A stretch of 41,019 nucleotides of DNA from a virus (IMGVR_UViG_2671180770_000025), one strand, 5' to 3'; positions 1 to 40,018 are shown, numbered from the stretch's first letter. Notes: generated from the sequence alone by a model not told the origin. Translations and numbers: made by a program.

Positions 1-1164
1 TTACACATCATTAGTACCTTCCTTATTTTTTGACTGGGACAAATTTGGGACCGATGGGTTTAGGATCGAGTCTATTTGCCGTGCGTGTTCGGTAAGGTGA
101 TTAGGTGCAAGGTGAGCATATCGACGAACCATTTCGATAGACTCCCAGCCTCCCATTTCCTGTAACACTGACAACGGGACTCCGGCTTGAACCAGCCAAC
201 TTGCCCAGGTGTGTCTCAAGTCGTGAAATCTGAAATCATCAATACCAGCCCGTCTCAGCGCCGCTTTCCAGGCTGTGTTTGCGTCATACCGCATCTTCCT
301 GACTGTTGGCGCTTTCGTTCCGTCTGGTTTGGTACAGCTTTCCTTGTACACAAATACCCAACGGTGATGATTCCCGATTTGTTTTTTCAATACGCGACAT
401 GCAGTATCATTCAGCGCAACGCCAATTGCGCGGTTTGATTTACTCTCTTCCGGGTTTATCCATGCCACCCGGCGCTGCATATCTATTTGTTGCCATTCAA
501 GGTTGATGATGTTCGAGCGTCTTAGGCCTGTTGCCAGTGCAAATTCAACAACAGACTTTAATGGCTCCGGACATTCATCAATCAGCCTTTGTGCTTCATG
601 GGGCTCCAGCCAGCGGATCCGTTTATTCTTTGGTTGGGGCACTTTAATAATTGGTGCCTTATCCAGCATTTTCCATTCACGCTCTGCGGCTCTTAGTAGG
701 GCCTTTATAAATGAAAGATGCGTAGCCTTCGTTGCAACGGACGCTGGTTTTGGCGTGTATTCTGGAACAGGTTTCCCTTTTTTTCTGCATGCTTCTGCCC
801 TGAGTTTCCAGTTTTCCTCATGACGCCGGTTCGTCATTTTCTGCATTGCTGAATAAATTTTTGATTCAGTAATGTCTCTTAGTTGCATTCCTGCGAAATG
901 TTGAAGCCAGAATCCGATCCGGCTTTTGTCATCGTCCAGTGATTTTTTATGTGCTTTCTCTTCAAGCCACCTGACACACGCTTCCTCGAACGTTATATCA
1001 GGTATTTCACCAAGTTTGCTGACCCGCCATGCTTCAGCCTTTAGCTTGTCATGGAGTTCTGTCGCCTGCCTTTTGTCCTTTGTTCCAAGAGACTGTTTAA
1101 ATCTTTTACCGTTCGGCAATGTGAAACTGGCGTACCATATTTCACCTCTGCGGAAGAGTGACAT
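1..1164 (-). CDS. int: Tyrosine integrase, P22 Int-like (387 aa)
   Basis: C-terminal tyrosine-recombinase motif [39 protein letters not shown]; N-terminus [14 protein letters not shown] resembles P22 Int as recalled; SD GAGGAAAG upstream of ATG at 1164. Confidence 0.9.
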
Positions 1165-3965: not shown

Positions 3966-4433
3966 TTTGCTGCTCCTCATCATATCGACCCTGCAAGGTC
4001 GGTTAGTTTCTCCACAAAACAGAGAAGAACACCTGCGGTGACTGCCGCCCGGATGGATTGGGTTATGAGCCCGTCGTCCGGTGATGCTCTTCTCTGTTTT
4101 GTAAAAAGGACGGTACCAGCCGGAAGCAAGGGTACAAGCTGGTACCGCCAAGACTACACACAGCATAAAGTTGTGGTGCCGGGTGCCTCCCGGTGCCTGG
4201 CGAAGGTTGCACACCAGGCGGGTGGGTATCCACAGAAGGTCGACTGTCAGCCTCAACCTTAACCCGCGTGCGCTGAGCCGCATTCACCACAACGCTAAGG
4301 ATTCTCTCTGGTTGAAAATACTTAGCTGTTATGTGCCTGCTTTTAGCCACATCAGGCGAGGTGGACCTAGTTATTCCCCAACAACAAGGATTCGGTTAAT
4401 CTGGTTATCCCCAACAACGCAAAAGGAAAAGAA

Positions 4434-4868
4434 ATGTCCGGTAATATCTATACGCTGTACAAATCCCACTGTGAAAATGTTGGAAAGTATCGGGGCATTG
4501 AAATCAGTGGGGTAGTGTCATCAGTCGAAATAAGCAAAGTTGAATCAAGGGCAACATTACTTACTCTTTTGGACCTTGTCTTACATGAGCACCGGAAGAA
4601 ATTCGGCACTCCCTATAATCAGTTGAATGGGAAAAAGGCTCTGGTTCACCTTATTCTGATGAAGCATCACTGGATGCCAAAACAGATTAATGAGATGAAA
4701 TTTGATGAACTTCTTCTTTCAATTCAGGATGAACTCACACTTGATAAAATAAGCGTAACCGCCCAGAAATTTTTAGATTATCGAGACTGGAGATCACAAA
4801 TTCATCACTTTGATGATTTTGACGAAAATGAATGGGATCCTAATTTGTCTGCACAATATCTAAAGTAA
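4434..4868 (+). CDS. Hypothetical 144-aa protein, AT-rich moron on the strand opposite the PL operon
   Basis: SD AAGGAA 8 nt upstream of ATG 4434; AT-rich versus flanks; direct repeats upstream; no recognisable domain. Confidence 0.5.
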   Translation: MSGNIYTLYKSHCENVGKYRGIEISGVVSSVEISKVESRATLLTLLDLVLHEHRKKFGTPYNQLNGKKALVHLILMKHHWMPKQINEMKFDELLLSIQDELTLDKISVTAQKFLDYRDWRSQIHHFDDFDENEWDPNLSAQYLK

Positions 4869-5046
4869 CATCCTGTGATAAAACCGTGATTTCCTGATCC
4901 AGTTTTTTTAAGGAGTCTATTGTTTCCTGTCGATAAGACAGCACTTCACGAAGCTGGTTTATAGCTGCCAGCTTCTTTGTCATCCACTCATAAATTTCCT
5001 CATCTGTGTAGCCAGGCGCGACGATTTTGGGTTCTGTTTTGTGCAT
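4840..5046 (-). CDS. Hypothetical 68-aa protein, first gene downstream of PL (N position but not N-like)
   Basis: ATG at 5046 with strong SD GAGGAG 8 nt upstream; no Arg-rich motif; 3' end overlaps the convergent gene 4434..4868 by 29 nt. Confidence 0.5.
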   Translation of the reverse strand: MHKTEPKIVAPGYTDEEIYEWMTKKLAAINQLREVLSYRQETIDSLKKLDQEITVLSQDVTLDIVQTN

Positions 5047-5105
5047 TTCACATCTCCTCAAGTTATCAGTTACTTGTTGATGGGGACCAGATTGTTAAAG
5101 AGCTA

Positions 5106-5128
5106 AGCGTCCTGTAGGGCGCTTTTTT
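5106..5128 (+). terminator. Intrinsic terminator on the plus strand (7-bp stem, tgta loop, T6)
   Basis: agcgtcc-tgta-gggcgct followed by tttttt. Confidence 0.5.
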
Positions 5129-5204
5129 GTTGCTAACGAATCATCCTGGACTTCATATGCCCCAGGCGGCTACTTCGTGGGCGTCCTGCCTGTTCGTTGT
5201 TTCT

Positions 5205-5241
5205 CTTGGGTACATTATGTATCTCAAAGGTACATTGTCAA
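5205..5241 (-). promoter_or_regulatory. PL-like leftward promoter with overlapping operator half-sites
   Basis: Minus strand reads TTGACA, 17-nt spacer, ATAATG; GGTACA half-sites at 5209..5214 and 5229..5234 match the OR palindrome half-site. Confidence 0.55.
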
Positions 5242-5244
5242 GTA

Positions 5245-5268
5245 TAAAAAAACCTGCCGAAGCAGGTT
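5245..5268 (-). terminator. Intrinsic terminator downstream of the cI stop
   Basis: Perfect 7-bp stem aacctgc/gcaggtt with 4-nt loop, followed by a U-run on the minus strand (A6 at 5245..5250 on plus). Confidence 0.6.
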
Positions 5269-5280
5269 CATAAACATTGA

Positions 5281-5955
5281 TTAGGCTTTGATTTTGTATC
5301 TTCTTGGTTTTCCTGAGAAAATCACTGTACCAATTATAGAGCAATTACCGTTGATCTTAATGTAAGGCTCAGGCCAGTTTGGGTTTAACGCTTTGAGATA
5401 ACGCTGTGTCCCATCTTCTATTAACCTTTTGAAGGTGGTTTCACCTGTATCGTGCATCAATGCAATAACGTCGTCACCGTGGCAGGCAGGTACTTCAGGA
5501 TCGACAAAAATCATGTCTCCCGGGCGGTACTCATCAATCATTGAATCACCTATCACCCGCAAGATATAAGTCATTTCCCCACAGGGTACAGGGCAGGGAT
5601 ACGTTTCTGCTGTGCTCAAATCAACCTCAGAATATCCAACTTCTTTCCATGCTCCGGCCTGTACCCATGATATGACAGGGACTAATGTGATTTGTTTATT
5701 AGTGATTGAAACATCAGGTTTTTTTGTGATGTTCGTTGTCTGGTGTTCTTGATCGAGCCATCCGACAGGTAGGTCGAAACATTTTTCGATGTGTCGTGCC
5801 ATGCTGTCACCGATATTTTTAGTAGCACCATCTCCCATAAACCTGCTGGTCTGGGTTGGCTCGCGATCAATCATAGTGGCAAAGGAAGAATTCCCGCCAA
5901 CACCATCTCTCAGTTTTCTGGCGTTAGACCGCCGGATGTCATGGATTGTTTTCAT
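5281..5955 (-). CDS. cI: CI-type prophage repressor with C-terminal S24 (LexA-like) autopeptidase domain
   Basis: C-terminal S24 signature (VIGDSM, TFKRL; LKALNPNWPEPYIKINGNCSIIG resembles the P22 C2 / lambda CI C-terminus); divergent from cro across an operator palindrome. Confidence 0.8.
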   Translation of the reverse strand: MKTIHDIRRSNARKLRDGVGGNSSFATMIDREPTQTSRFMGDGATKNIGDSMARHIEKCFDLPVGWLDQEHQTTNITKKPDVSITNKQITLVPVISWVQAGAWKEVGYSEVDLSTAETYPCPVPCGEMTYILRVIGDSMIDEYRPGDMIFVDPEVPACHGDDVIALMHDTGETTFKRLIEDGTQRYLKALNPNWPEPYIKINGNCSIIGTVIFSGKPRRYKIKA

Positions 5956-5970
5956 AACGAAATTAAAACC

Positions 5971-6042
5971 CTTGTACCGTTAAGGTACAAGTATCTTGAA
6001 GGTTCATTTCAATCATGTAATATGTGCACCGGAGGTACATAT
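5971..6042. promoter_or_regulatory. OR region: operator palindromes plus PR promoter
   Basis: Perfect 21-bp palindrome cttgtacc-gttaa-ggtacaag (5971..5991); second imperfect site tgtgcacc-gga-ggtacat (6022..6042); PR -35 TTGAAG (5996..6001), 16-nt spacer, -10 TAATAT (6018..6023); cro SD GGAGGT. Confidence 0.65.
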
Positions 6043-6045
6043 TGT

Positions 6046-6246
6046 ATGAAAGCGTATTGGGACTCTTTAACCAAAGAACAGCAGGGCGAGTTGGCCGGAA
6101 AAGTTGGCTCAACACCTGGCTACTTACGGCTGGTTTTCAATGGCTATAAAAAAGCCAGTTTTGTGCTGGCTAAAAAACTTGAGCAATGCACGTCAGGTGC
6201 AATTACGAAATCTGACTTAAGACCGGATATCTATCCGAAAGATTAG
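6046..6246 (+). CDS. cro: Cro-like HTH regulator (66 aa)
   Basis: Small basic HTH protein immediately right of OR, divergent from cI; SD GGAGGT 9 nt upstream. Confidence 0.7.
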   Translation: MKAYWDSLTKEQQGELAGKVGSTPGYLRLVFNGYKKASFVLAKKLEQCTSGAITKSDLRPDIYPKD

Positions 6247-7185: not shown

Positions 7186-8127
7186 ATGAGCACTAAATTA
7201 ACCGGCTATGTATGGGATGGTTGCGCTGCATCAGGCATGAAATTATCCAGCGTGGCAATTATGGCCCGCCTGGCTGATTTCAGTAATGACGAAGGTGTGT
7301 GCTGGCCATCAATTGAAACCATTGCCCGCCAGATTGGCGCGGGAATGAGTACCGTCAGAACGGCTATCGCACGGCTGGAAGCAGAAGGCTGGTTAACGCG
7401 TAAGGCGCGTCGCCAGGGTAACCGCAATGCGTCGAATGTTTATCAGCTTAACGTTGCGAAGCTTCAGGCAGCGGCATTTTCTCAACTGTCAGATTCTGAC
7501 CCGTCAAAATCTGACGCATCAAAATCTGACCCGTCAAAATTTGATGCGTCGAAATCTGGCAAAAAAGCGGGTTTTCACCCGTCAGAATCTGGCGGGGATC
7601 CGTCAGTAAAATCAAAACATGATCCGTCAGATAAAAAACCTTCTCGTCCGGACGCTTCGCAACCGGACACGCAGACGGATGAACAGGATTTTTTAACTCG
7701 CCATCCTGATGCGGTTGTATTCAGCCCTAAAAAGCGCCAGTGGGGAACGCAGGATGATTTGACCTGCGCACAGTGGCTCTGGAAAAAAATCATCGCCCTG
7801 TACGAGCAAGCCGCCGAATGTGACGGCGAGGTGGTTCGTCCCAAAGAACCGAACTGGACAGCCTGGGCAAACGAAATTCGCCTGATGTGTGTGCAGGATG
7901 GTCGTACTCACAAACAAATCTGCGAGATGTACAGCCGCGTCAGCCGCGATCCGTTCTGGTGCCGTAACGTGCTCAGCCCGTCGAAGTTGCGGGAAAAATG
8001 GGATGAGCTTTCCCTGCGCTTATCACCGTCCGTTAGCACGTACACCGAAAAACGCGAAGACCCGTACTTCAAATCCAGTTACGACAACGTGGACTACAGC
8101 CAGATCCCGGCAGGATTCAGGGGGTGA
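7186..8127 (+). CDS. Replication initiator (O-like): N-terminal winged-helix domain, C-terminal DnaT-like domain, ori iterons embedded
   Basis: N-terminal wHTH (SIETIARQIGAGMSTVRTAIARLEAEGWL); internal repeat peptide SDSDPSKSDASKSDPSKFDASKSG encoded by tandem DNA iterons; C-terminal W/KLREKWDEL region. Confidence 0.6.
   Translation: MSTKLTGYVWDGCAASGMKLSSVAIMARLADFSNDEGVCWPSIETIARQIGAGMSTVRTAIARLEAEGWLTRKARRQGNRNASNVYQLNVAKLQAAAFSQLSDSDPSKSDASKSDPSKFDASKSGKKAGFHPSESGGDPSVKSKHDPSDKKPSRPDASQPDTQTDEQDFLTRHPDAVVFSPKKRQWGTQDDLTCAQWLWKKIIALYEQAAECDGEVVRPKEPNWTAWANEIRLMCVQDGRTHKQICEMYSRVSRDPFWCRNVLSPSKLREKWDELSLRLSPSVSTYTEKREDPYFKSSYDNVDYSQIPAGFRG
7487..7640. repeat. Candidate origin of replication: five tandem 14-15-bp iterons, then degenerate copies and an A-rich tract
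   Basis: tgtcagattctgac / ccgtcaaaatctgac / gcatcaaaatctgac / ccgtcaaaatttgat / gcgtcgaaatctggc, then ccgtcagaatctgg, ccgtcagtaaaatc, ccgtcagataaaaaa. Confidence 0.6.
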
Positions 8128-8129
8128 TC

Positions 8130-8618
8130 ATGAGTCTTTTGAATGACGTTCAGAAATTCATTGAAGCCCATCCGGGGTGTACTTCCGGAGACATTGCGGA
8201 TGCTTTTGCAGGTTACTCACGACAGCGCGTTCTGCAGTCAGCAAGCAAGTTACGTCAGAGTGGGCGTGTGGCTCACCGTTGTGAAGGGGATACACGCAGA
8301 CATTTCCCGCGGCTGACTGAGATACCGCAGGAGCCGGAACCGCAACCAGTTCGTGAATCCAGACCTGTGCGCAATTTCTATGTCGGCACTAACGATCCCC
8401 GGGTGATTTTGTGCCTGACCCGCCAGGCGGAAGAACTGGAGTCCAGGGGCTTATACCGTCGTGCTGCAACGGTGTGGATGGCGGCATTCCGTGAAAGCCA
8501 CTCCCAGCAAGAGCGAAACAATTTTCTTGCGCGTCGTGAACGGTGTTTACGGAAAAGCAGTAAGCAGGCTGCATCAGGTGAAGAGTGGTATCTCTCAGGG
8601 AATTACGTGGGGGCTTAA
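8130..8618 (+). CDS. Hypothetical regulator, possibly PerC-family
   Basis: C-terminal LESRGLYRRAATVWMAAFRESHSQQERNNFLARRERC resembles the PerC conserved region as recalled; N-terminal winged-helix-like segment. Confidence 0.35.
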   Translation: MSLLNDVQKFIEAHPGCTSGDIADAFAGYSRQRVLQSASKLRQSGRVAHRCEGDTRRHFPRLTEIPQEPEPQPVRESRPVRNFYVGTNDPRVILCLTRQAEELESRGLYRRAATVWMAAFRESHSQQERNNFLARRERCLRKSSKQAASGEEWYLSGNYVGA

Positions 8619-9271
8619 TGAGTAATAAATATTGCCAGGCGCTGGCGGAACTGCGGAACAAACCAGCCCATGAACTGAAGGAAGTGGGCGATCAGTGGCG
8701 CACGCCGGACAACATTTTCTGGGGAATTAACACCCTGTTTGGCCCGTTTGTTCTGGATCTGTTCACTGACGGTGATAACGCCAAATGTGCTGCGTATTAC
8801 ACGGCGGAAGACAACGCGCTGGCGCATGACTGGTCAGAACGCCTTGCGGAGCTTAAAGGTGCTGCCTTTGGTAATCCCCCATACAGCCGCGCCAGTCAGC
8901 ATGAGGGGCAATACATTACCGGCATGCGTTACATCATGAAGCATGCCAGTGCCATGCGTGATAAAGGCGGGCGCTATGTTTTCCTGATCAAAGCTGCCAC
9001 CAGCGAAGTGTGGTGGCCGGAAGATGCAGATCATATTGCTTTTATTCGCGGGCGTATTGGTTTTGAACTGCCTGCCTGGTTTATCCCGAAGGATGAGAAG
9101 CAGGTGCCGACAGGCGCTTTCTTCGCTGGTGCTATTGCTGTTTTCGACAAGACCTGGAAGGGACCGGCAATCAGCTACATCGGGCGCGATGAACTTGAGG
9201 CATGTGGTGAGGCCTTTCTGGCGCAGGTTCGCCAGCAGGCAGAAAAACTGGTCAGGGAGATGGCGGCATGA
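8618..9271 (+). CDS. dam: Phage DNA N6-adenine methyltransferase (Dam-like)
   Basis: Catalytic motif FGNPPYS (DPPY-type); ATG overlaps the upstream stop (TAATG). Confidence 0.75.
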   Translation: MSNKYCQALAELRNKPAHELKEVGDQWRTPDNIFWGINTLFGPFVLDLFTDGDNAKCAAYYTAEDNALAHDWSERLAELKGAAFGNPPYSRASQHEGQYITGMRYIMKHASAMRDKGGRYVFLIKAATSEVWWPEDADHIAFIRGRIGFELPAWFIPKDEKQVPTGAFFAGAIAVFDKTWKGPAISYIGRDELEACGEAFLAQVRQQAEKLVREMAA

Positions 9272-9594
9272 CGACGTTAACTCAATGCCAGCAGCAGGTG
9301 CTGGATATGCTGATTTCTTATCAGAAAGAACGTGGCTTCCCGCCAACCAATCAGGAGGTGGCAACCATGCTGGGATACCGTTCAGTGAATGCAGCGGTGG
9401 AGCATCTTCGCGCACTGGAGAAAAAAGGCGTCATCACGATAAAGCGTGGCGTGGCCCGGGGCATCACGCTTCATACCGCGGTGAAGGACGACGACAGCGA
9501 GGCGGTCGGGATTATCCGCTCACTGCTTGCCGGTGAGGAAAACGCAAGGCTGCGTGCAACCCACTGGTTACATGAGAGGGGCCTGAAAGTATGA
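9268..9594 (+). CDS. LexA N-terminal DNA-binding domain protein lacking the S24 peptidase domain (108 aa)
   Basis: MTTLTQCQQQVLDMLISYQKERGFPPTNQEVATMLGYRSVNAAVEHLRALEKKGVITI aligns to the E. coli LexA N-terminus; no Ser-Lys peptidase domain follows. Confidence 0.7.
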   Translation: MTTLTQCQQQVLDMLISYQKERGFPPTNQEVATMLGYRSVNAAVEHLRALEKKGVITIKRGVARGITLHTAVKDDDSEAVGIIRSLLAGEENARLRATHWLHERGLKV

Positions 9595-33466: not shown

Positions 33467-34252
33467 ATGCATCGTATAGACACGAAAACCGCGCAGAAGG
33501 ATAAGTTCGGCGCGGGTAAGAACGGTTTTACCCGTGGTAACCCCCAGACAGGCACGCCTGCCACCGATCTGGATGATGACTACTTTGACATGTTGCAGGA
33601 GGAGCTTTGCAGCGTGGTGGAGGCATCCGGTGCCAGCCTGGAGAAGGGGCGGCACGACCAGTTGCTTACCGCGCTTCGTGCGCTGCTGTTAAGCCGCAAG
33701 AATCCGTTTGGCGATATCAAATCGGATGGCACGGTGAAAACGGCTCTCGAAAACCTTGGTTTGGGAGAAGGCTCTGCATTACCGGTTGGGGTGCCTGTTC
33801 CGTGGCCTTCAGCCACTCCGCCAACAGGCTGGTTGAAATGCAATGGTGCGGCTTTTTCTGCTGAAGAATACCCGGAACTGGCAAAGGCTTACCCGACCAA
33901 TAAATTGCCTGATTTACGTGGTGAGTTTATTCGTGGCTGGGATGATGAACGTGGTGTGGATAGTGGGCGAACTCTGCTTTCAGCGCAAGGAGATGCTATT
34001 CGAAACATTACTGGCGGTTTTGGTCAGTTGCGCGTAAACAGCGAAATTAATGCAATTGTCGATGTTCAAAGTGTGAGTGGGGCTTTTTACGGAGGTACCT
34101 CAGTCAGGAATAACATCAATGTATCTATGACATACGCTAATGACCGAAAAATCCGACAAGATGTTCACTTCTCGGCGGCAAATGTTGTTCCAACAGCAAA
34201 TGAAAATCGTCCACGTAACATCGCCTTTAATTATATTGTGAGGGCCGCATGA
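33467..34252 (+). CDS. Tail fibre protein: constant N-terminal part plus currently expressed variable C-terminal part
   Basis: 261 aa; GC content drops sharply after about 33900; recombination site inside the gene at 33744..33769. Confidence 0.7.
33744..33769. promoter_or_regulatory. Left crossover site of the invertible segment (hix/gix-like 26-bp site)
   Basis: ctctcgaaaaccttggtttgggagaa resembles hixL TTCTTGAAAACCAAGGTTTTTGATAA as recalled; inverted partner at 35628..35653. Confidence 0.6.
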
Positions 34253-34854
34253 TGAATAAAGCTGTATTGAATAGCGAACTCATTGCCATAAAAGCGGGAG
34301 ACATTATCATTTATAATTATGATGGTGAAACGCGGGAATATATTTCTACATCAACTGAATATCTCGCTGTCGGCGTCGGTATCCCGGCATGTTCCTGTTT
34401 GGATGCACCAGGTACACATAAAGCTGGTTATGCAATCTGTCGCTCTGTAGATTTAAATTCATGGGAATATGTGCCAGACCATCGCGGTGAAGTTGTCTAT
34501 AGTACCGAAACGGGAGATACCAAAGAAATCGCAGTTCCGGGTGATTATCCTGAAAATACAACCACTATCGCCCCGTTAACGCCATATGATAAATGGGATG
34601 GTGAGAAATGGGTGACGGATACTGAGGCACAGCATAGTGCCGCAGTAGACGCGGCAGAAGCACAGCGCCAGTCACTGATTGATGCAGCAATGGCTTCCAT
34701 TAGTCTGATTCAGCTGAAATTACAGGCCGGACGGAAGTTGACGCAGGCAGAAACAACCCGACTTAACGCCGTGCTGGATTACACTGACGCGGTGACGGCA
34801 ACAGATACCAGCACCGCGCCGGATGTCATCTGGCCTGAACTGCCGGAGGCGTAG
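34249..34854 (+). CDS. tfa: Tail fibre assembly protein (Tfa/U-like)
   Basis: 201 aa directly after the fibre gene (ATGA overlap). Confidence 0.7.
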
Positions 34855-35266
34855 GCCATTCAATATCTGGCGCACTGGAAGTATCGACCAGTTCCAGTGC
34901 GTCCAGATAATCCAGCCACAGATTATATTGCGCCAGATCCTCGCCTTTCAGACGACCAATAGCGGCTTTACCGGGCCATTGTTTACTGTTCATGTATTCA
35001 TTGGCCTGGCTAATTAACTGCTGTTTTTTAGTTTCAGCAATATCCATAACCATTTTTTTATCTGGCGGAGATATTAATATCCATGCAGGTCTCCCCTGAG
35101 AGGTGGCACCTAATATAAAACCATCAGGAGGAATTTGCGTATATTTATTCCATTCATCATCTGATATTTCGATAGCATCATCTGGCCATCCAATACCGTT
35201 GTGATATTCTTCTTTGCGAGTTTCATCATAAAACCACAATGTTGATGCACTGAAAAAAATTCTCAT
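34826..35266 (-). CDS. Alternative tail fibre assembly protein (Tfa') in the inverted orientation
   Basis: 146 aa on the opposite strand; C-terminus [14 protein letters not shown] parallels the Tfa C-terminus [14 protein letters not shown]. Confidence 0.6.
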   Translation of the reverse strand: MRIFFSASTLWFYDETRKEEYHNGIGWPDDAIEISDDEWNKYTQIPPDGFILGATSQGRPAWILISPPDKKMVMDIAETKKQQLISQANEYMNSKQWPGKAAIGRLKGEDLAQYNLWLDYLDALELVDTSSAPDIEWPTPPAVQAR

Positions 35267-35267
35267 T

Positions 35268-35641
35268 CTAATATCCTATCGCAAACCACGAGAAAGAAAG
35301 TTCTCTGGAATTGGCTGTTGGTGGCTGACCAATGCCCCCACGATAAAACGCCAGAGTTAATCCTCCTGCTTTGCGTGATGTTGTTTGAGCAAATACATAG
35401 TCATTTGTGTTCTCTTCCGCACTTAAAGCTCCTCCGGCAATACAGTCATTAGGGAATGCTGCAGGGAAATTAATCCAGATACTGGACTGCGTTGTCAGCT
35501 TTCCATACCCGGCTTTCAGAATTAATCCTCCTGGTAACTCAAAATTAAGAGGATTGTTTTTTGTAAATGGAAAGTTGGAGATATCCGGTATCTGATTTTC
35601 CCCTGTCCCCACATCCCGTTTTGCCGCTTCTCCCAAACCAA
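35268..35641 (-). CDS. Alternative tail fibre variable C-terminal cassette (no own start; expressed only after inversion)
   Basis: Open frame on the minus strand from the right crossover site; encodes NVGLGEA matching NLGLGEG at the left site. Confidence 0.55.
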
Positions 35642-35653
35642 CGTTTATGAAAA
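35628..35653. promoter_or_regulatory. Right crossover site of the invertible segment (inverted copy of the left site)
   Basis: Reverse complement ttttcataaacgttggtttgggagaa shares AAAC.TTGGTTTGGGAGAA with the left site. Confidence 0.6.
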
Positions 35654-35707
35654 TGCAGAAATAACGAGCAAATGGCATCATTCCTGCTTTTGTCAGGGGG
35701 AGCTACC

Positions 35708-35836
35708 ATGCTTATTGGCTATGTACGCGTATCAACAAATGACCAGAACACCGATCTACAACGTAATGCGTTGAGCTGTGCAGGATGCGAGCTGATTTTT
35801 GAAGACAAGATAAGCGGTACAAAGTCCGAAACCTAG
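35708..35836 (+). pseudogene. pin: Pin/Gin/Hin-family serine invertase, truncated after 42 codons
   Basis: MLIGYVRVSTNDQNTDLQRNALSCAGCELIFEDKISGTKSE matches the invertase N-terminus with catalytic Ser in VSTNDQ; in-frame TAG at 35834, then unrelated AT-rich DNA. Confidence 0.8.
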
Positions 35837-35931: not shown

Positions 35932-37821
35932 TTAATCGTGTTTTGGCCATACTTTCAATGCAATTTCCCCCAACTTTTTACCCCGCTCCAGGATTTCATC
36001 CTCATCCCATTTATCCTTAACTATAAGTGGAATGTTCAGTCGTAGATTGGTGTGGACGATGAGAGCATCACGTTTTTTCAGAAATACAGCATTCTGAACA
36101 GAACGGTTTACGCTAAGGTTAAGCAAAGTTAGATTTCCCAACGTAGCTATCGCTTGTTGCCGTTTCCTTACCAGTAGCTGTTCAGGGGTAAGATCGGTTC
36201 CAGACAGAACAATTTGGTTCAATACCGTAGCATCTGAATTTGTCACCATATGACCATTTTCGAGAGGCCAACAGGAATACCAACTTTGAGGCATAAGATG
36301 ATCGATATCGAGGTTAGAAAGATTTGGAACATCAGGCTTCTCTGTCTTCACTTGGCGACAAAGTTCTCTTTCAAGTTCCGTTAACATTGAGCGCATTTTC
36401 GGTGCGTCGAGCCTGCCAGGATAAAGTGGAGCATTGATGCAAGCGTTGAGAAATTCTGAGTCCCCAGGCCAACGTGAGGCTTCGCCATTTAAGCTATTGA
36501 GGATATTACGTAACTCAACACTGGAAATTTCCGTTTTAGACAAGTGCCGCAATACATTCATAAATACATTGTTGTAATTCTTTGGCGTCAGGCCACATAC
36601 GGCTCTTCGTACTACGTAGGAGACAAGATCATTATACATGGCTGCTTTCTCATCATCGGCGATGTTAGCTATCGAAATGAACAAAGCAAGCGGATAAAGT
36701 GTCGTCACATCATAGGCTGCGATGCGATGTCCAAAGTGTGAGATGGGGGTTGTGCCAAAACCACCAACCAATTCTTTATATTGTGATGCATATTGTTTGA
36801 GGCGCTTTACTTGCAGATCTGCTCGTTGTGAAGGCAAGTCCTTACTTACATAATCACGATACTCATTGTAAAGACGAGACAGATCGATTTCACGTTGCCT
36901 TTCTGATTGCAATGTCGCATGCACTAGCCACTCCATGCGTGGTTTATTAATACGACCACGACGTTGTCTTTCTGACCAGTACGTATCTTCAAAGATCTTC
37001 CACTCATTCTCATATAATTCAACAGCATTAATATTTTCATGTTCAGCGCACATAAAAATATAATTGCGAATAAGATCTGTGGCATGAAGTTCCGCACCTC
37101 TGCCATTTAATGTTTCAAAAATTATTTGAGCGTCATCTTCAGCCTCGAGAAATATGCTTACTAGTTTCAGATCCGTCAAGACAGCCTCAATTAATGCTAC
37201 AGCATTTTCTCGTGGTGAGTGATTTTCTATTTTAATCCACTTTATAAAGGCTTCAGTAAAAAAACATAATGCTTCTAGTGATGGCGGGTGATTAAAATGC
37301 TTACGCAACGTACCATGCTGCGTGAAACTATCAGAGAATACATTCCGGATATCGTCAATATTTTCAACATTAAAACTTTGAATAAAATGAGTTTGATCCC
37401 GAAAAGTTGGCCACAGTTTGAAGCGCTCTACTTCTTTATTTCGCATTGTGTCTTCGTTTGAGTTTTTCAGGCAAGACGAAATGAGAGGCTCTAAGTTGGA
37501 AAGATCTGTCGCACGTAATGCTAATCGGATGGATGCCAGAACATATTGAAGAGTGGTCAATCGTTGCTGACCATCAATAATATGTATGGAATCTACACCT
37601 AATAATCCTTTTTTTGGTTGAGGTTCCAGTACCACTGCACCAAGGAAATGGGGAGTTGGTTTTGTACCCGAGAGCCGGGATTGTGCTTTCTCTAGGATAT
37701 CCTCCAGTAGAGCTGACCATTGGTTTCGCTGAGTCCATACATAGGCACGTTGATAGAATGGAACGCAGTATTGTCGGCGGTCTTGAAAAAGTTGTTGGAC
37801 AGTTAGCGTCTCGGATTTCAT
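35932..37821 (-). CDS. DUF262/DUF1524 two-domain nuclease (GmrSD-like, candidate type IV restriction / anti-phage enzyme); start may be 37881
   Basis: N-terminal DUF262 motifs (VPFYQRAYVWT, IIDGQQRLTTL); C-terminal DUF1524-like His-Me motif (NLDIDHLMPQSW); about 40% GC cargo. Confidence 0.7.
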   Translation of the reverse strand: MKSETLTVQQLFQDRRQYCVPFYQRAYVWTQRNQWSALLEDILEKAQSRLSGTKPTPHFLGAVVLEPQPKKGLLGVDSIHIIDGQQRLTTLQYVLASIRLALRATDLSNLEPLISSCLKNSNEDTMRNKEVERFKLWPTFRDQTHFIQSFNVENIDDIRNVFSDSFTQHGTLRKHFNHPPSLEALCFFTEAFIKWIKIENHSPRENAVALIEAVLTDLKLVSIFLEAEDDAQIIFETLNGRGAELHATDLIRNYIFMCAEHENINAVELYENEWKIFEDTYWSERQRRGRINKPRMEWLVHATLQSERQREIDLSRLYNEYRDYVSKDLPSQRADLQVKRLKQYASQYKELVGGFGTTPISHFGHRIAAYDVTTLYPLALFISIANIADDEKAAMYNDLVSYVVRRAVCGLTPKNYNNVFMNVLRHLSKTEISSVELRNILNSLNGEASRWPGDSEFLNACINAPLYPGRLDAPKMRSMLTELERELCRQVKTEKPDVPNLSNLDIDHLMPQSWYSCWPLENGHMVTNSDATVLNQIVLSGTDLTPEQLLVRKRQQAIATLGNLTLLNLSVNRSVQNAVFLKKRDALIVHTNLRLNIPLIVKDKWDEDEILERGKKLGEIALKVWPKHD

Positions 37822-38554
37822 GGTATACCTGTAAGCGACATTGTACAAAAGTGAGGAGTTAATCTGATTTAGAACAATCATTTTATGTTGCTATGATACA
37901 ACGTATTTGTTACCGGTTAAGTAAAAAACGCGTCTGAACGCTGACGTTTTAGGGCTTTACTAGTTATTCTTTCTTATCTCTTCATCATCCCATCGGCATC
38001 CTGTCGAGGTTGTTGACTTGTTGTTATTTATTTTGTTTAGGCGCTGTTTAATTATTATTGATGGGACTGGTGGTGAGAGGTGATTGAAACCGCAGACAGG
38101 TCGTATGCAAGACGTGCTGCGGTTGGCTGGTAAATGTTAGATAGTGCGAGTATTGAATGATTTCTAGCCGTTATTGATTTTACGTATTTTTGTATGAGAG
38201 GATTTGCATCTCCTGCCACCGACCCTCCATGACTTTACGCCACTGTCTCTAGGGCTGCTATGTGCCAAAAGCGGAAGTTGAGGGGGGATGGCAAGCACTC
38301 GTATCGTGGCAAAATTTTGGCTACCGCTTCTCCCGGTCGCAACCGATTTAGTTGACTATGGCGCGTGTGTTAATCAACGGGGAGGAAGTTAGAGGAAACA
38401 ATAAATAAAGACATAACCGTCTGTTTTTATTTAAATTATTGACTGATGCGAGGAGTTGAACTTCCGATACCCCATGATATCTTACTTAGATAGTGAGATG
38501 ATCTAAGATACACTATATAAGTTACAATCTAGCCGGAGATGTAGGAGGGAGTAT

Positions 38555-39358
38555 ATGGGGTATGATTATAAAGAGCATATTAGCAATGCTAAGAGGCTCT
38601 ATGAAATTGGGGATAACGCTTCTTTAAGATACTGTGCATTGGAATTGAGATTTGCAATTGAGTGCCATGTATATATTCAATTAAGAGCAGGGCTAGGAAC
38701 AATTCCAGAGACGGTAATTAACACATGGCAACCACCTCAAGCAATAAAATCTTTATGCATGTTTGAGGAAACAGCAGATCAGGATTTAAAAGTAACTATA
38801 ACTTGTGATGACTCTAATGAGATAACAGCAAACTATAAAAATATTAAGTATAAGGACCTTAATAAATGGTATAATACCCTTGGGAGTTTTTTACATCAAC
38901 CAACCATAAAAAAGCAAGAATTTCAAGTAGATAAAGATAAACTAAATTCGATATTATCGAATTTAGCTGAACTGTGCGATCATCAGCTCATAACATTTCA
39001 TCGTGGTTATGAGAAAATAAAATGTGAAAAATGTAAAAAGGAAATTATTTTTACTAAAAATTACGTGAAAAAAAATAATAAAATAGATTGCCAAAATGCT
39101 GGTTGCCATAATTATGTTATTATTAGACTTGCCCCGGATGGTACATATGAATCACTCCAATCTGCTGTAGTAGCTTGCTTTATATGTGGTGAAAAAAACC
39201 ACATCTCATTATGCGACATGGAGGATGGAGCAGAGTTATATTGCAAGACGTGTAAAAATAAACATGTAATTAAAAAAGCTATTTTCTCCCAAGACAAAGT
39301 TGTTCCCATACCTGAATTTACTTTCGAAAACTCATTGTTGGTTGAGGACAAAGAGTAA
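38555..39358 (+). CDS. Hypothetical 267-aa protein: helical N-terminal region with R-x5-H motif, C-terminal double zinc-ribbon-like region
   Basis: Very AT-rich; ELRFAIECH fits Rx4-6H; CEKCKK...CQNAGCH and CFICGE...CKTCKNKH Cys clusters; no recognised family. Confidence 0.5.
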   Translation: MGYDYKEHISNAKRLYEIGDNASLRYCALELRFAIECHVYIQLRAGLGTIPETVINTWQPPQAIKSLCMFEETADQDLKVTITCDDSNEITANYKNIKYKDLNKWYNTLGSFLHQPTIKKQEFQVDKDKLNSILSNLAELCDHQLITFHRGYEKIKCEKCKKEIIFTKNYVKKNNKIDCQNAGCHNYVIIRLAPDGTYESLQSAVVACFICGEKNHISLCDMEDGAELYCKTCKNKHVIKKAIFSQDKVVPIPEFTFENSLLVEDKE

Positions 39359-39586
39359 CATCAAGTTGTTTGTAGAGCTTGCTTGACCTGCTCCCCGTTG
39401 ATTAATACATATTTCTGCTGGTCATATCATTATTTTGAGCCTGACGGCTTGATCAACTCAGTCCGCTGTTCGCTCATAGCGGACCTTACAACCACCTGAT
39501 TGGTCCGTTCCGTGTCAGGAGCGGATACCGTAAGCATTTTATCCTCTGGAGGGGCATCCCTTTCAAGAAATGCATCCGTTGTGGAT

Positions 39587-40018
39587 TTATGCAACACCTG
39601 AAGCTACTAACAAAGAACAATTTGTCTGACCAAAGGCATTTTTTAGCAGCGGGAAAAGAGGGGGAAGTTCCGTTAGCGATTTTAGAGGCTTGAGGCTCTT
39701 AAGTGATTTAAGTGATGGCAAATTAGGTGTGGTAACCATGTCTTTTACTGCACAGGCAACATAGCCATCGTGATCAATCAACATACCATTAGTAAACCAG
39801 CCTAAATGATTCCCATTGAATCCATAAACATCAAACTCATTGTTCTGGTTATGTTTAAGGTAGGCGCTTGGTTCACCCTCCCAACTATATAAAGTCAACT
39901 CGTCATCAAGTGAAATATAAACGACGGCGTTGCCTTGATTATCATATAGATCTAGGTCATTACTCGCAGTAACACAAGCTGAGAAAAGAAACATAACTAG
40001 CACGAGTGATTTTTTCAT
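39587..40018 (-). CDS. Secreted hypothetical protein with C-terminal LKS repeat (143 aa)
   Basis: N-terminal signal peptide MKKSLVLVMFLFSACVTA; C-terminal PSLKSLKSLKPLKSL repeat encoded by a short tandem DNA repeat. Confidence 0.45.
   Translation of the reverse strand: MKKSLVLVMFLFSACVTASNDLDLYDNQGNAVVYISLDDELTLYSWEGEPSAYLKHNQNNEFDVYGFNGNHLGWFTNGMLIDHDGYVACAVKDMVTTPNLPSLKSLKSLKPLKSLTELPPLFPLLKNAFGQTNCSLLVASGVA

Follow-up and report, generated by a model that had tools for sequence, protein, structure and literature searches.

The locus and its prophage

The window analysed here is a 41,019-nucleotide stretch of viral DNA (IMGVR_UViG_2671180770_000025), and the element in question is a tail-fibre segment bounded by two inverted crossover sites, pixL and pixR (Table 1). 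The left site lies inside a short fibre gene, the segment between the two sites carries two opposed variable fibre cassettes, each paired with a tfa assembly chaperone gene, and beyond the right site lies the beginning of pin, the gene of a serine invertase. An earlier note on this DNA had described the arrangement as a host-range switch of the Mu G-segment type that looks locked unless an invertase acts in trans. A comparison with sister copies in complete Escherichia coli genomes suggests that, although its own invertase gene is truncated, the segment probably continues to invert with the help of an enzyme whose gene lies elsewhere.

The window is an e14-family prophage and apparently a complete one. 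Its genes, as annotated in RefSeq, comprise an integrase, a repressor region, replication functions, an antiterminator, a holin/endolysin/spanin group, terminase, portal, protease and capsid; these are joined by sheath, tube, tape measure, a Mu-type baseplate and YmfQ, after which comes the fibre module. Apart from pin, the sole gene marked as damaged in this annotation is one small frameshifted gene. The early genes are lambdoid and the head is of the HK97 type.

Table 1. Coordinates of the features at the invertible fibre segment (positions in the window)
Feature	Position	Strand	Details
Tail-fibre gene, whole	33467-34252	+	261 amino acids; from the list of open reading frames
Constant N-terminal part of the fibre	33467-33757	+	about 97 codons; ends at the crossover dinucleotide; retained in the in-silico flip
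Left crossover site, pixL	33744-33769		reads CTCTCGAAAACC TT GGTTTGGGAGAA; centre TT at 33756-33757; inside the fibre gene
Invertible segment	33757-35640		1884 bp from centre to centre; inversions in sister loci bounded exactly by both cores
Variable fibre cassette now expressed	33758-34252	+	Phage Tail Collar domain (Pfam, E=1e-15)
tfa, assembly chaperone paired with the expressed cassette	34249-34854	+	201 amino acids; Caudo_TAP (Pfam, E=3e-31)
tfa', chaperone of the silent cassette	34826-35266	-	146 amino acids; Caudo_TAP (Pfam, E=4e-30)
Silent alternative fibre cassette	35268-35639	-	promoterless; Gp53-like_C (Pfam, E=1.8e-12)
Right crossover site, pixR	35628-35653		reads TTCTCCCAAACC AA CGTTTATGAAAA; centre AA at 35640-35641
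pin stub	35708-35836	+	42 codons: 41 of pin (35708-35830) and one foreign, then stop
Putative Fis-dependent enhancer homologue	35724-35800		+84 to +160 from the pixR centre; gap-free alignment to D108 gin nucleotides 17-93
Candidate 15-nucleotide Fis cores (G-N13-C)	35729-35743 and 35778-35792		49 nucleotides apart
Breakpoint between pin and the GmrSD cargo	35831-35832		end of pin homology
GmrSD-family type IV restriction gene (DUF262/DUF1524)	35932-37881	-	649 amino acids; stands in for the 3' three quarters of pin

Crossover sites and fibre cassettes

The two 26-bp inverted sites named in the earlier note are borne out by direct comparison, by a repeat finder and by a shuffle test. Compared as an inverted repeat, pixL and pixR are identical at 21 of 26 positions; both are imperfect palindromes, and their central dinucleotides match (TT and AA), as in the sites of serine invertases. 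The repeat finder returned arms of 20 nucleotides at 33751-33770 and 35627-35646 that are 95% complementary. Within the sites lies a perfect common core of 15 nucleotides, TTGGTTTGGGAGAAG, which occurs twice in the window, once on each strand; the chance expectation was 0.01 matches in shuffled sequence, and none of 100 shuffles reached two. The same core has been printed as the inversion site of the e14 P segment (PMC12529663) and is also identical in the five e14-type loci that were compared. The right site can be aligned without gaps to the gix site that adjoins gin in phage D108, and many positions differ between the window's sites and D108 gix. A search with 12-nucleotide half-sites for additional pix sites, which would be a sign of a multi-site shufflon, found none beyond these two, and the system is therefore read as a simple two-site switch.

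The earlier estimate of about 1.9 kb for the segment was correct, and the same holds for the description of two opposed variable cassettes, each with a tfa gene, which agrees with the open reading frames, the Pfam domains and the outcome of inversion in silico. Reverse-complementing positions 33757-35640 gives an in-frame fibre of 220 amino acids with the same 97 N-terminal residues. Both cassettes and both chaperone genes are intact open reading frames with full-length domain matches, and the constant part of the fibre is common to all e14-type relatives compared.

The open reading frame of the silent cassette continues across pixR to an ATG at 35681 (35268-35681, minus strand). The annotated gene, which is the counterpart of K-12 stfE, accordingly begins 41 nucleotides outside the segment (MMPFARYFCIFINV...), and in a flipped segment the gene that starts at 35681 would run into the collar-type cassette. 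A promoter scan found no promoter-like site for the reading frame 35268-35681. The convergent tfa and tfa' genes overlap by 29 nucleotides at their 3' ends (34826-34854); in D108, U and U' are split by a bidirectional terminator.

Truncation of pin

The stub of pin, whose translation begins MLIGYVRVSTNDQ, was noticed earlier as a gene that stops after 42 codons. This reading is upheld, with the refinement that 41 of these codons belong to pin by alignment. Residues 3-41 match positions 2-48 of the 145 positions in the Pfam Resolvase profile, and in an alignment to the intact pinE of strain 2196 the homology stops at about 35831, after codon 41. With 41 of 184 pin codons left, the DNA-binding domain is missing altogether and the catalytic domain for the most part, while the DNA of the stub is still about 97% identical to the start of intact pinE. 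RefSeq concurs, since the identical locus in strain Res13-Sevr-PER07-33 is annotated as 'recombinase family protein, incomplete, missing C-terminus' and marked as a pseudogene. No intact serine invertase gene adjoins either site in the window.

The gene that follows on the opposite strand encodes a protein with both GmrSD_N (E=6.9e-34) and GmrSD_C (E=5.1e-20) in one polypeptide by Pfam, and it matches the PADLOC family mREase_IV (type IV methyl-directed) with 1440 bits over positions 1-629 of 629. By its domains, this neighbour belongs to the GmrSD type IV restriction enzymes, with the corresponding activity predicted. The simplest reading of the junction is that an exchange of cargo at the prophage end took away three quarters of pin.

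Both orientations among stub-carrying loci

The junction between the pin stub and the GmrSD gene was found in 286 of 5426 complete E. coli genomes (497-nucleotide query, at least 80% covered), and a query comprising pinE plus GmrSD returned 296 stub-carrying genomes. The stub lineage makes up about 5% of complete E. coli genomes and includes UTI89, S88, APEC O1, IHE3034 and the type strain. All loci compared share one breakpoint, which points to a single truncation event.

For a first type of cassette, the query was the locus of ATCC 11775, which has the stub of the window but a different pair of cassettes; it was used once in its native form and once inverted in silico at the central dinucleotides. 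The raw counts of 110 matches in the ATCC orientation and 40 in the flipped one were narrowed to about 80-84 and 24 stub-carrying genomes, respectively, the former number being taken from identity bands. Left out of the flipped matches were 14 genomes with an intact pinE (about 94% identity), IMT5155, which has no pin/GmrSD region, and one genome that covers the query only from position 294. The 24 remaining genomes, among them IHE3034 and APEC O1, cover all 2701 nucleotides of the synthetic flip including the junction, 22 of them at 100.0% and in one piece. The flipped share for the ATCC-type cassette is thus about 23%; among e14 loci in public genomes, 33% have been reported to be flipped (Kirigo et al. 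2025, PMC12529663).

Pairs of closely related loci show the inversion most directly. Apart from an inversion, two substitutions and one indel are all that distinguishes ATCC 11775 from APEC O1 over 12.6 kb; the inversion ends in the pix cores, and immediately inside these the bases have changed places, as an inversion predicts. In a second cassette type, only one substitution and the inversion separate the loci of ES8 and ES7 across 10.5 kb; both isolates were collected in a single frog-farm sampling. The flipped orientation is also found in PMV-1 on a more divergent flank, so orientation is not simply tied to haplotype. From near-identical loci that share the same stub and occur in both orientations, we conclude by genome comparison that inversion of the segment has happened since the truncation, recently and on two or more occasions, and that the stub family is not locked. 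The part of the earlier note that took the switch to look locked does not stand at the level of the family, in which both orientations lie behind an identical stub; its proviso of an invertase acting in trans does, because the stub family flips although its own invertase is truncated.

A presumed enhancer within the stub

Invertases of the Hin family require two crossover sites and a Fis-bound enhancer in cis, while the protein itself may come from elsewhere. The hin enhancer is 65 bp long, lies about 100 bp from hixL and has AT-rich ATTTA and TAATG tracts between its Fis sites (PMC3798978). The Fis sites of Mu are part of the coding sequence of gin and lie some 550 bp upstream from the start of mom (PMC3378877), a distance that places them within the first 100 nucleotides or so of gin. 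The stretch of the pin stub that aligns to this part of D108 gin contains TAATG. The stub reaches to +191 from the pixR centre, about 30 bp beyond the enhancer homologue, so the truncation would have spared the whole of the presumed enhancer, which the stub, judged by this alignment, appears to retain.

Candidate invertases acting in trans

Pin, Gin, Cin and Hin are classically known to complement one another. For the e14 P segment in particular, PinQ and PinR have been shown to invert it in trans (PMC12529663). In a sensitive blastn search, the chromosome of the window's host matches the pinE-plus-GmrSD query in four places, i.e. in three besides the window's own locus. A candidate source of the enzyme is suggested by a P2-like prophage of strain DETEC-E601, in which a module (4001-6078 of the compared locus) is 98.4% identical to positions 33753-35829 of the window. 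Since this prophage combines a near-identical module with an intact invertase, P2-like prophages of its kind are plausible donors of the enzyme. The homology of the window to the DETEC-E601 module begins exactly at the left pix site, which, together with the degree of identity, suggests that P2-like and e14-like phages have exchanged modules at the sites or close to them. Among the best 60 of the 296 stub genomes, a second pinE-like place was found in 8 of the 11 flipped and in 18 of the 49 other genomes (Fisher p=0.04, uncorrected for relatedness).

The prophage end to the right of pin

In the window, the slot following pin (35932-40018) holds the GmrSD gene, then an open reading frame of 267 amino acids without a family match and then a gene for a 4-fold beta flower protein. 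In relatives, the same slot is filled by other genes: the type IV enzyme McrA in phage vB_EcoM-689R6, a TrlF-like AAA ATPase in strain 2196, and LEM-3-like GIY-YIG, PD-(D/E)XK and AbiTii genes in ATCC 11775 and in ES7 and ES8. We take mcrA to fill the corresponding slot of e14 in K-12. As the cargo varies in this way among relatives, this end of the prophage has the look of a hotspot for defence genes.

Further decay is seen in some genomes (e.g. NZ_CP025950.3), which retain only nucleotides 55-123 of the stub beside the GmrSD gene and have a 'hypothetical protein' at the position of the fibre module. The GmrSD gene or the fibre region is damaged in other relatives, by a frameshift in APEC O1 (7577-9467 of the compared locus) and by insertion sequences in KTa005, MS20654 and N66. 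As judged from window positions 1-1164 and the right flank, the prophage of the window lies between intF/yagN and ykgR/LysR genes, next to a second integrase gene. Members of the family occupy varied chromosomal positions, for instance at about 1.25 Mb in ATCC 11775 and beside ssrA in ES7 and ES8.

Interpretation and alternatives

We consider it probable that the window carries an orphan host-range switch of the P-segment (Pin) kind in an e14-family prophage, which has lost its own invertase, has kept the elements required in cis and can be flipped in trans. In the present orientation, the late operon would make the 261-residue, collar-tipped fibre together with Tfa, and inversion between the pix sites would fuse the 97-residue N-terminus to the gp53-like tip and bring in the second chaperone. 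The GmrSD gene would have replaced everything past codon 41 of pin, destroying the invertase, in a deletion that left both pix sites and the enhancer-homologous stretch in place. The switch would then be unable to flip itself, and an invertase of the Pin/Gin/Hin family from another prophage or a plasmid in the same cell would flip the segment. The sequences show the anatomy, the truncation with its wide distribution, and exact inversions in sister copies that have the same stub; the function of the enhancer, the identity of this enzyme, the flipping of the window's own copy and the effect on host range are what we infer.

Several observations weigh against this reading, and some of them speak for a fossil switch instead, i.e. 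one frozen in the collar-type orientation and decaying, with the two orientations among its relatives going back to rare and old events. The window's cassette pair is present in one genome and in one orientation only, and no flipped copy of it was found among the genomes searched; in two culture collections, the type strain (ATCC 11775 and JCM 20135) likewise has one and the same orientation. Because the window's pair was never seen flipped and the two stocks agree, the rate of inversion may be low. The split of 24 to about 82 genomes is uncorrected for phylogeny and could be explained by few events. No intact invertase adjoins the segment, loci more decayed than the window's exist, and many stub chromosomes have no other pinE-like sequence: the second pinE-like place was not detected by blastn in several of them, including the flipped PMV-1, GN06489 and GN06758. 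The flipping enzyme may belong to a lost element, be encoded by a plasmid or be a distant recombinase. As to the enhancer, the stretch 35724-35800 also aligns without gaps to what we take to be the hin enhancer, a match that serves as a lead only. In K-12, moreover, a deletion of pinE has been reported to lock the segment despite the presence of pinQ and pinR (PMC12529663). Going by its position, this deletion should also remove the enhancer region. What makes a fossil unlikely in our view is that pairs of loci near-identical over 10-12 kb differ in orientation, and do so for two cassette types, that the cassettes and tfa genes have all stayed intact with full-length domains, and that the host chromosome has three other pinE-like places.

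In principle, homologous recombination or gene conversion involving prophages that have the module the other way round, and not site-specific inversion, could account for the opposite orientations among relatives. It is true that the module moves between phage families, as the P2-like copy with its homology starting at the left pix site indicates, and that cassette types vary among stub-carrying prophages. However, the flipped loci correspond to a pure in-silico inversion, at 100.0% over 2.7 kb and with unchanged flanks; the exchange would have to be confined to the 15-nucleotide core, a length at which homologous recombination is inefficient, and a donor of identical sequence would be required every time, which renders this explanation very improbable. 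We attach just as little probability to the proposal that the segment mainly serves the host, with an orientation-dependent protein from the reading frame 35268-35681 blocking the adsorption of other phages. Such an adsorption block has been reported for StfE2 of K-12 e14 (PMC12529663), the PGAP gene call crosses the right pix site and the neighbourhood is rich in defence genes; on the other hand, the promoter scan of this reading frame was negative, the window's cassettes differ from those of K-12, and for a complete prophage the host range of the virion is the simpler explanation.

To return to the orphan switch flipped in trans, a bolder version of it would be that the 123-nucleotide stub has been kept for the sake of its enhancer, that the prophage outsourced the invertase when it was traded for a restriction enzyme, and that its host range has come to depend on the unlinked recombinase that happens to be at hand, including, in the lineages of PMV-1 and GN06489 without a pinE-like gene, an enzyme unlike Pin. 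We regard this extension as doubtful, somewhat more so than a fossil.

The pseudogene label that annotation pipelines put on the invertase suggests a dead switch, whereas the comparison of genomes shows continued orientation change in a lineage that makes up about 5% of complete E. coli genomes. The locus would be a natural case of a phase-variable locus governed from another mobile element, and it cautions against equating 'no recombinase nearby' with 'fixed'. As a simple system, it also lends itself to the questions of cross-action among resident invertases and of the need for the presumed enhancer in the stub. Since switches of this type, and the possibility of flipping them in trans, have been familiar from the 1980s on, the gain is an incremental one. 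The new part would be the population-level evidence, drawn from genome sequences, that a variant with a pseudogenised invertase still inverts, with the presumed enhancer kept.

Comparison with known systems

As the core of the sites is identical to that of e14 and the closest intact invertases are PinE proteins, the switch is, by sequence, assigned to the family of the e14 P segment and Pin, with the G segment and Gin of Mu as a mechanistic analogue only. The likeness to the Mu G segment drawn in the earlier note therefore stands for the mechanism and not for the family: the core is that of e14, the relatives are PinE proteins and the setting is lambdoid with an HK97-type head, and neither the gix sequence nor the genome context of Mu was found. 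Intact PinE is 77.5% identical to D108 Gin at the protein level.

The e14 P segment with PinE of E. coli K-12, reportedly described by Plasterk and van de Putte in 1985, is the closest counterpart. Both loci have Mu-like baseplate genes, ymfQ, a short fibre gene, two tfa genes and then pin, with the same layout of constant part, cassettes and chaperones and with an identical core. They differ in that pin comprises only 41 codons in the window, where the cargo is GmrSD and not McrA as in e14, and in the cassettes themselves; the segment measures 1884 bp in the window and 1797 bp in e14, and the window's prophage is complete, whereas e14 is a remnant of 15 kb.

The G segment of Mu and D108 follows the same logic of Sc/Sv-U and Sv'-U', with 26-bp sites of the same half-site pattern, an invertase gene just outside the right site and Fis sites in the 5' part of that gene, where the stub has its presumed enhancer. 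The sequence of the sites differs, the constant part of the fibre is much shorter in the window (97 codons), the phage is another one, and the window is without a working invertase. The P2-like module of DETEC-E601 shares with the window the cassette pair, both tfa genes and the first 122 or so nucleotides of the invertase gene, and pixR, like the inner half of pixL, is identical in the two. In contrast to the window, it is joined to a long fibre of the P2 H type and has an intact invertase of 188 amino acids that is 83% identical to PinE.

The H segment of Salmonella is inverted by Hin and also by Fin of the prophage Fels-2. Whereas the linked invertase is intact there and the segment bears a promoter and not fibre cassettes, this system has the same enhancer geometry as is presumed for the window and provides a precedent for the flipping of a segment by an unlinked prophage invertase.

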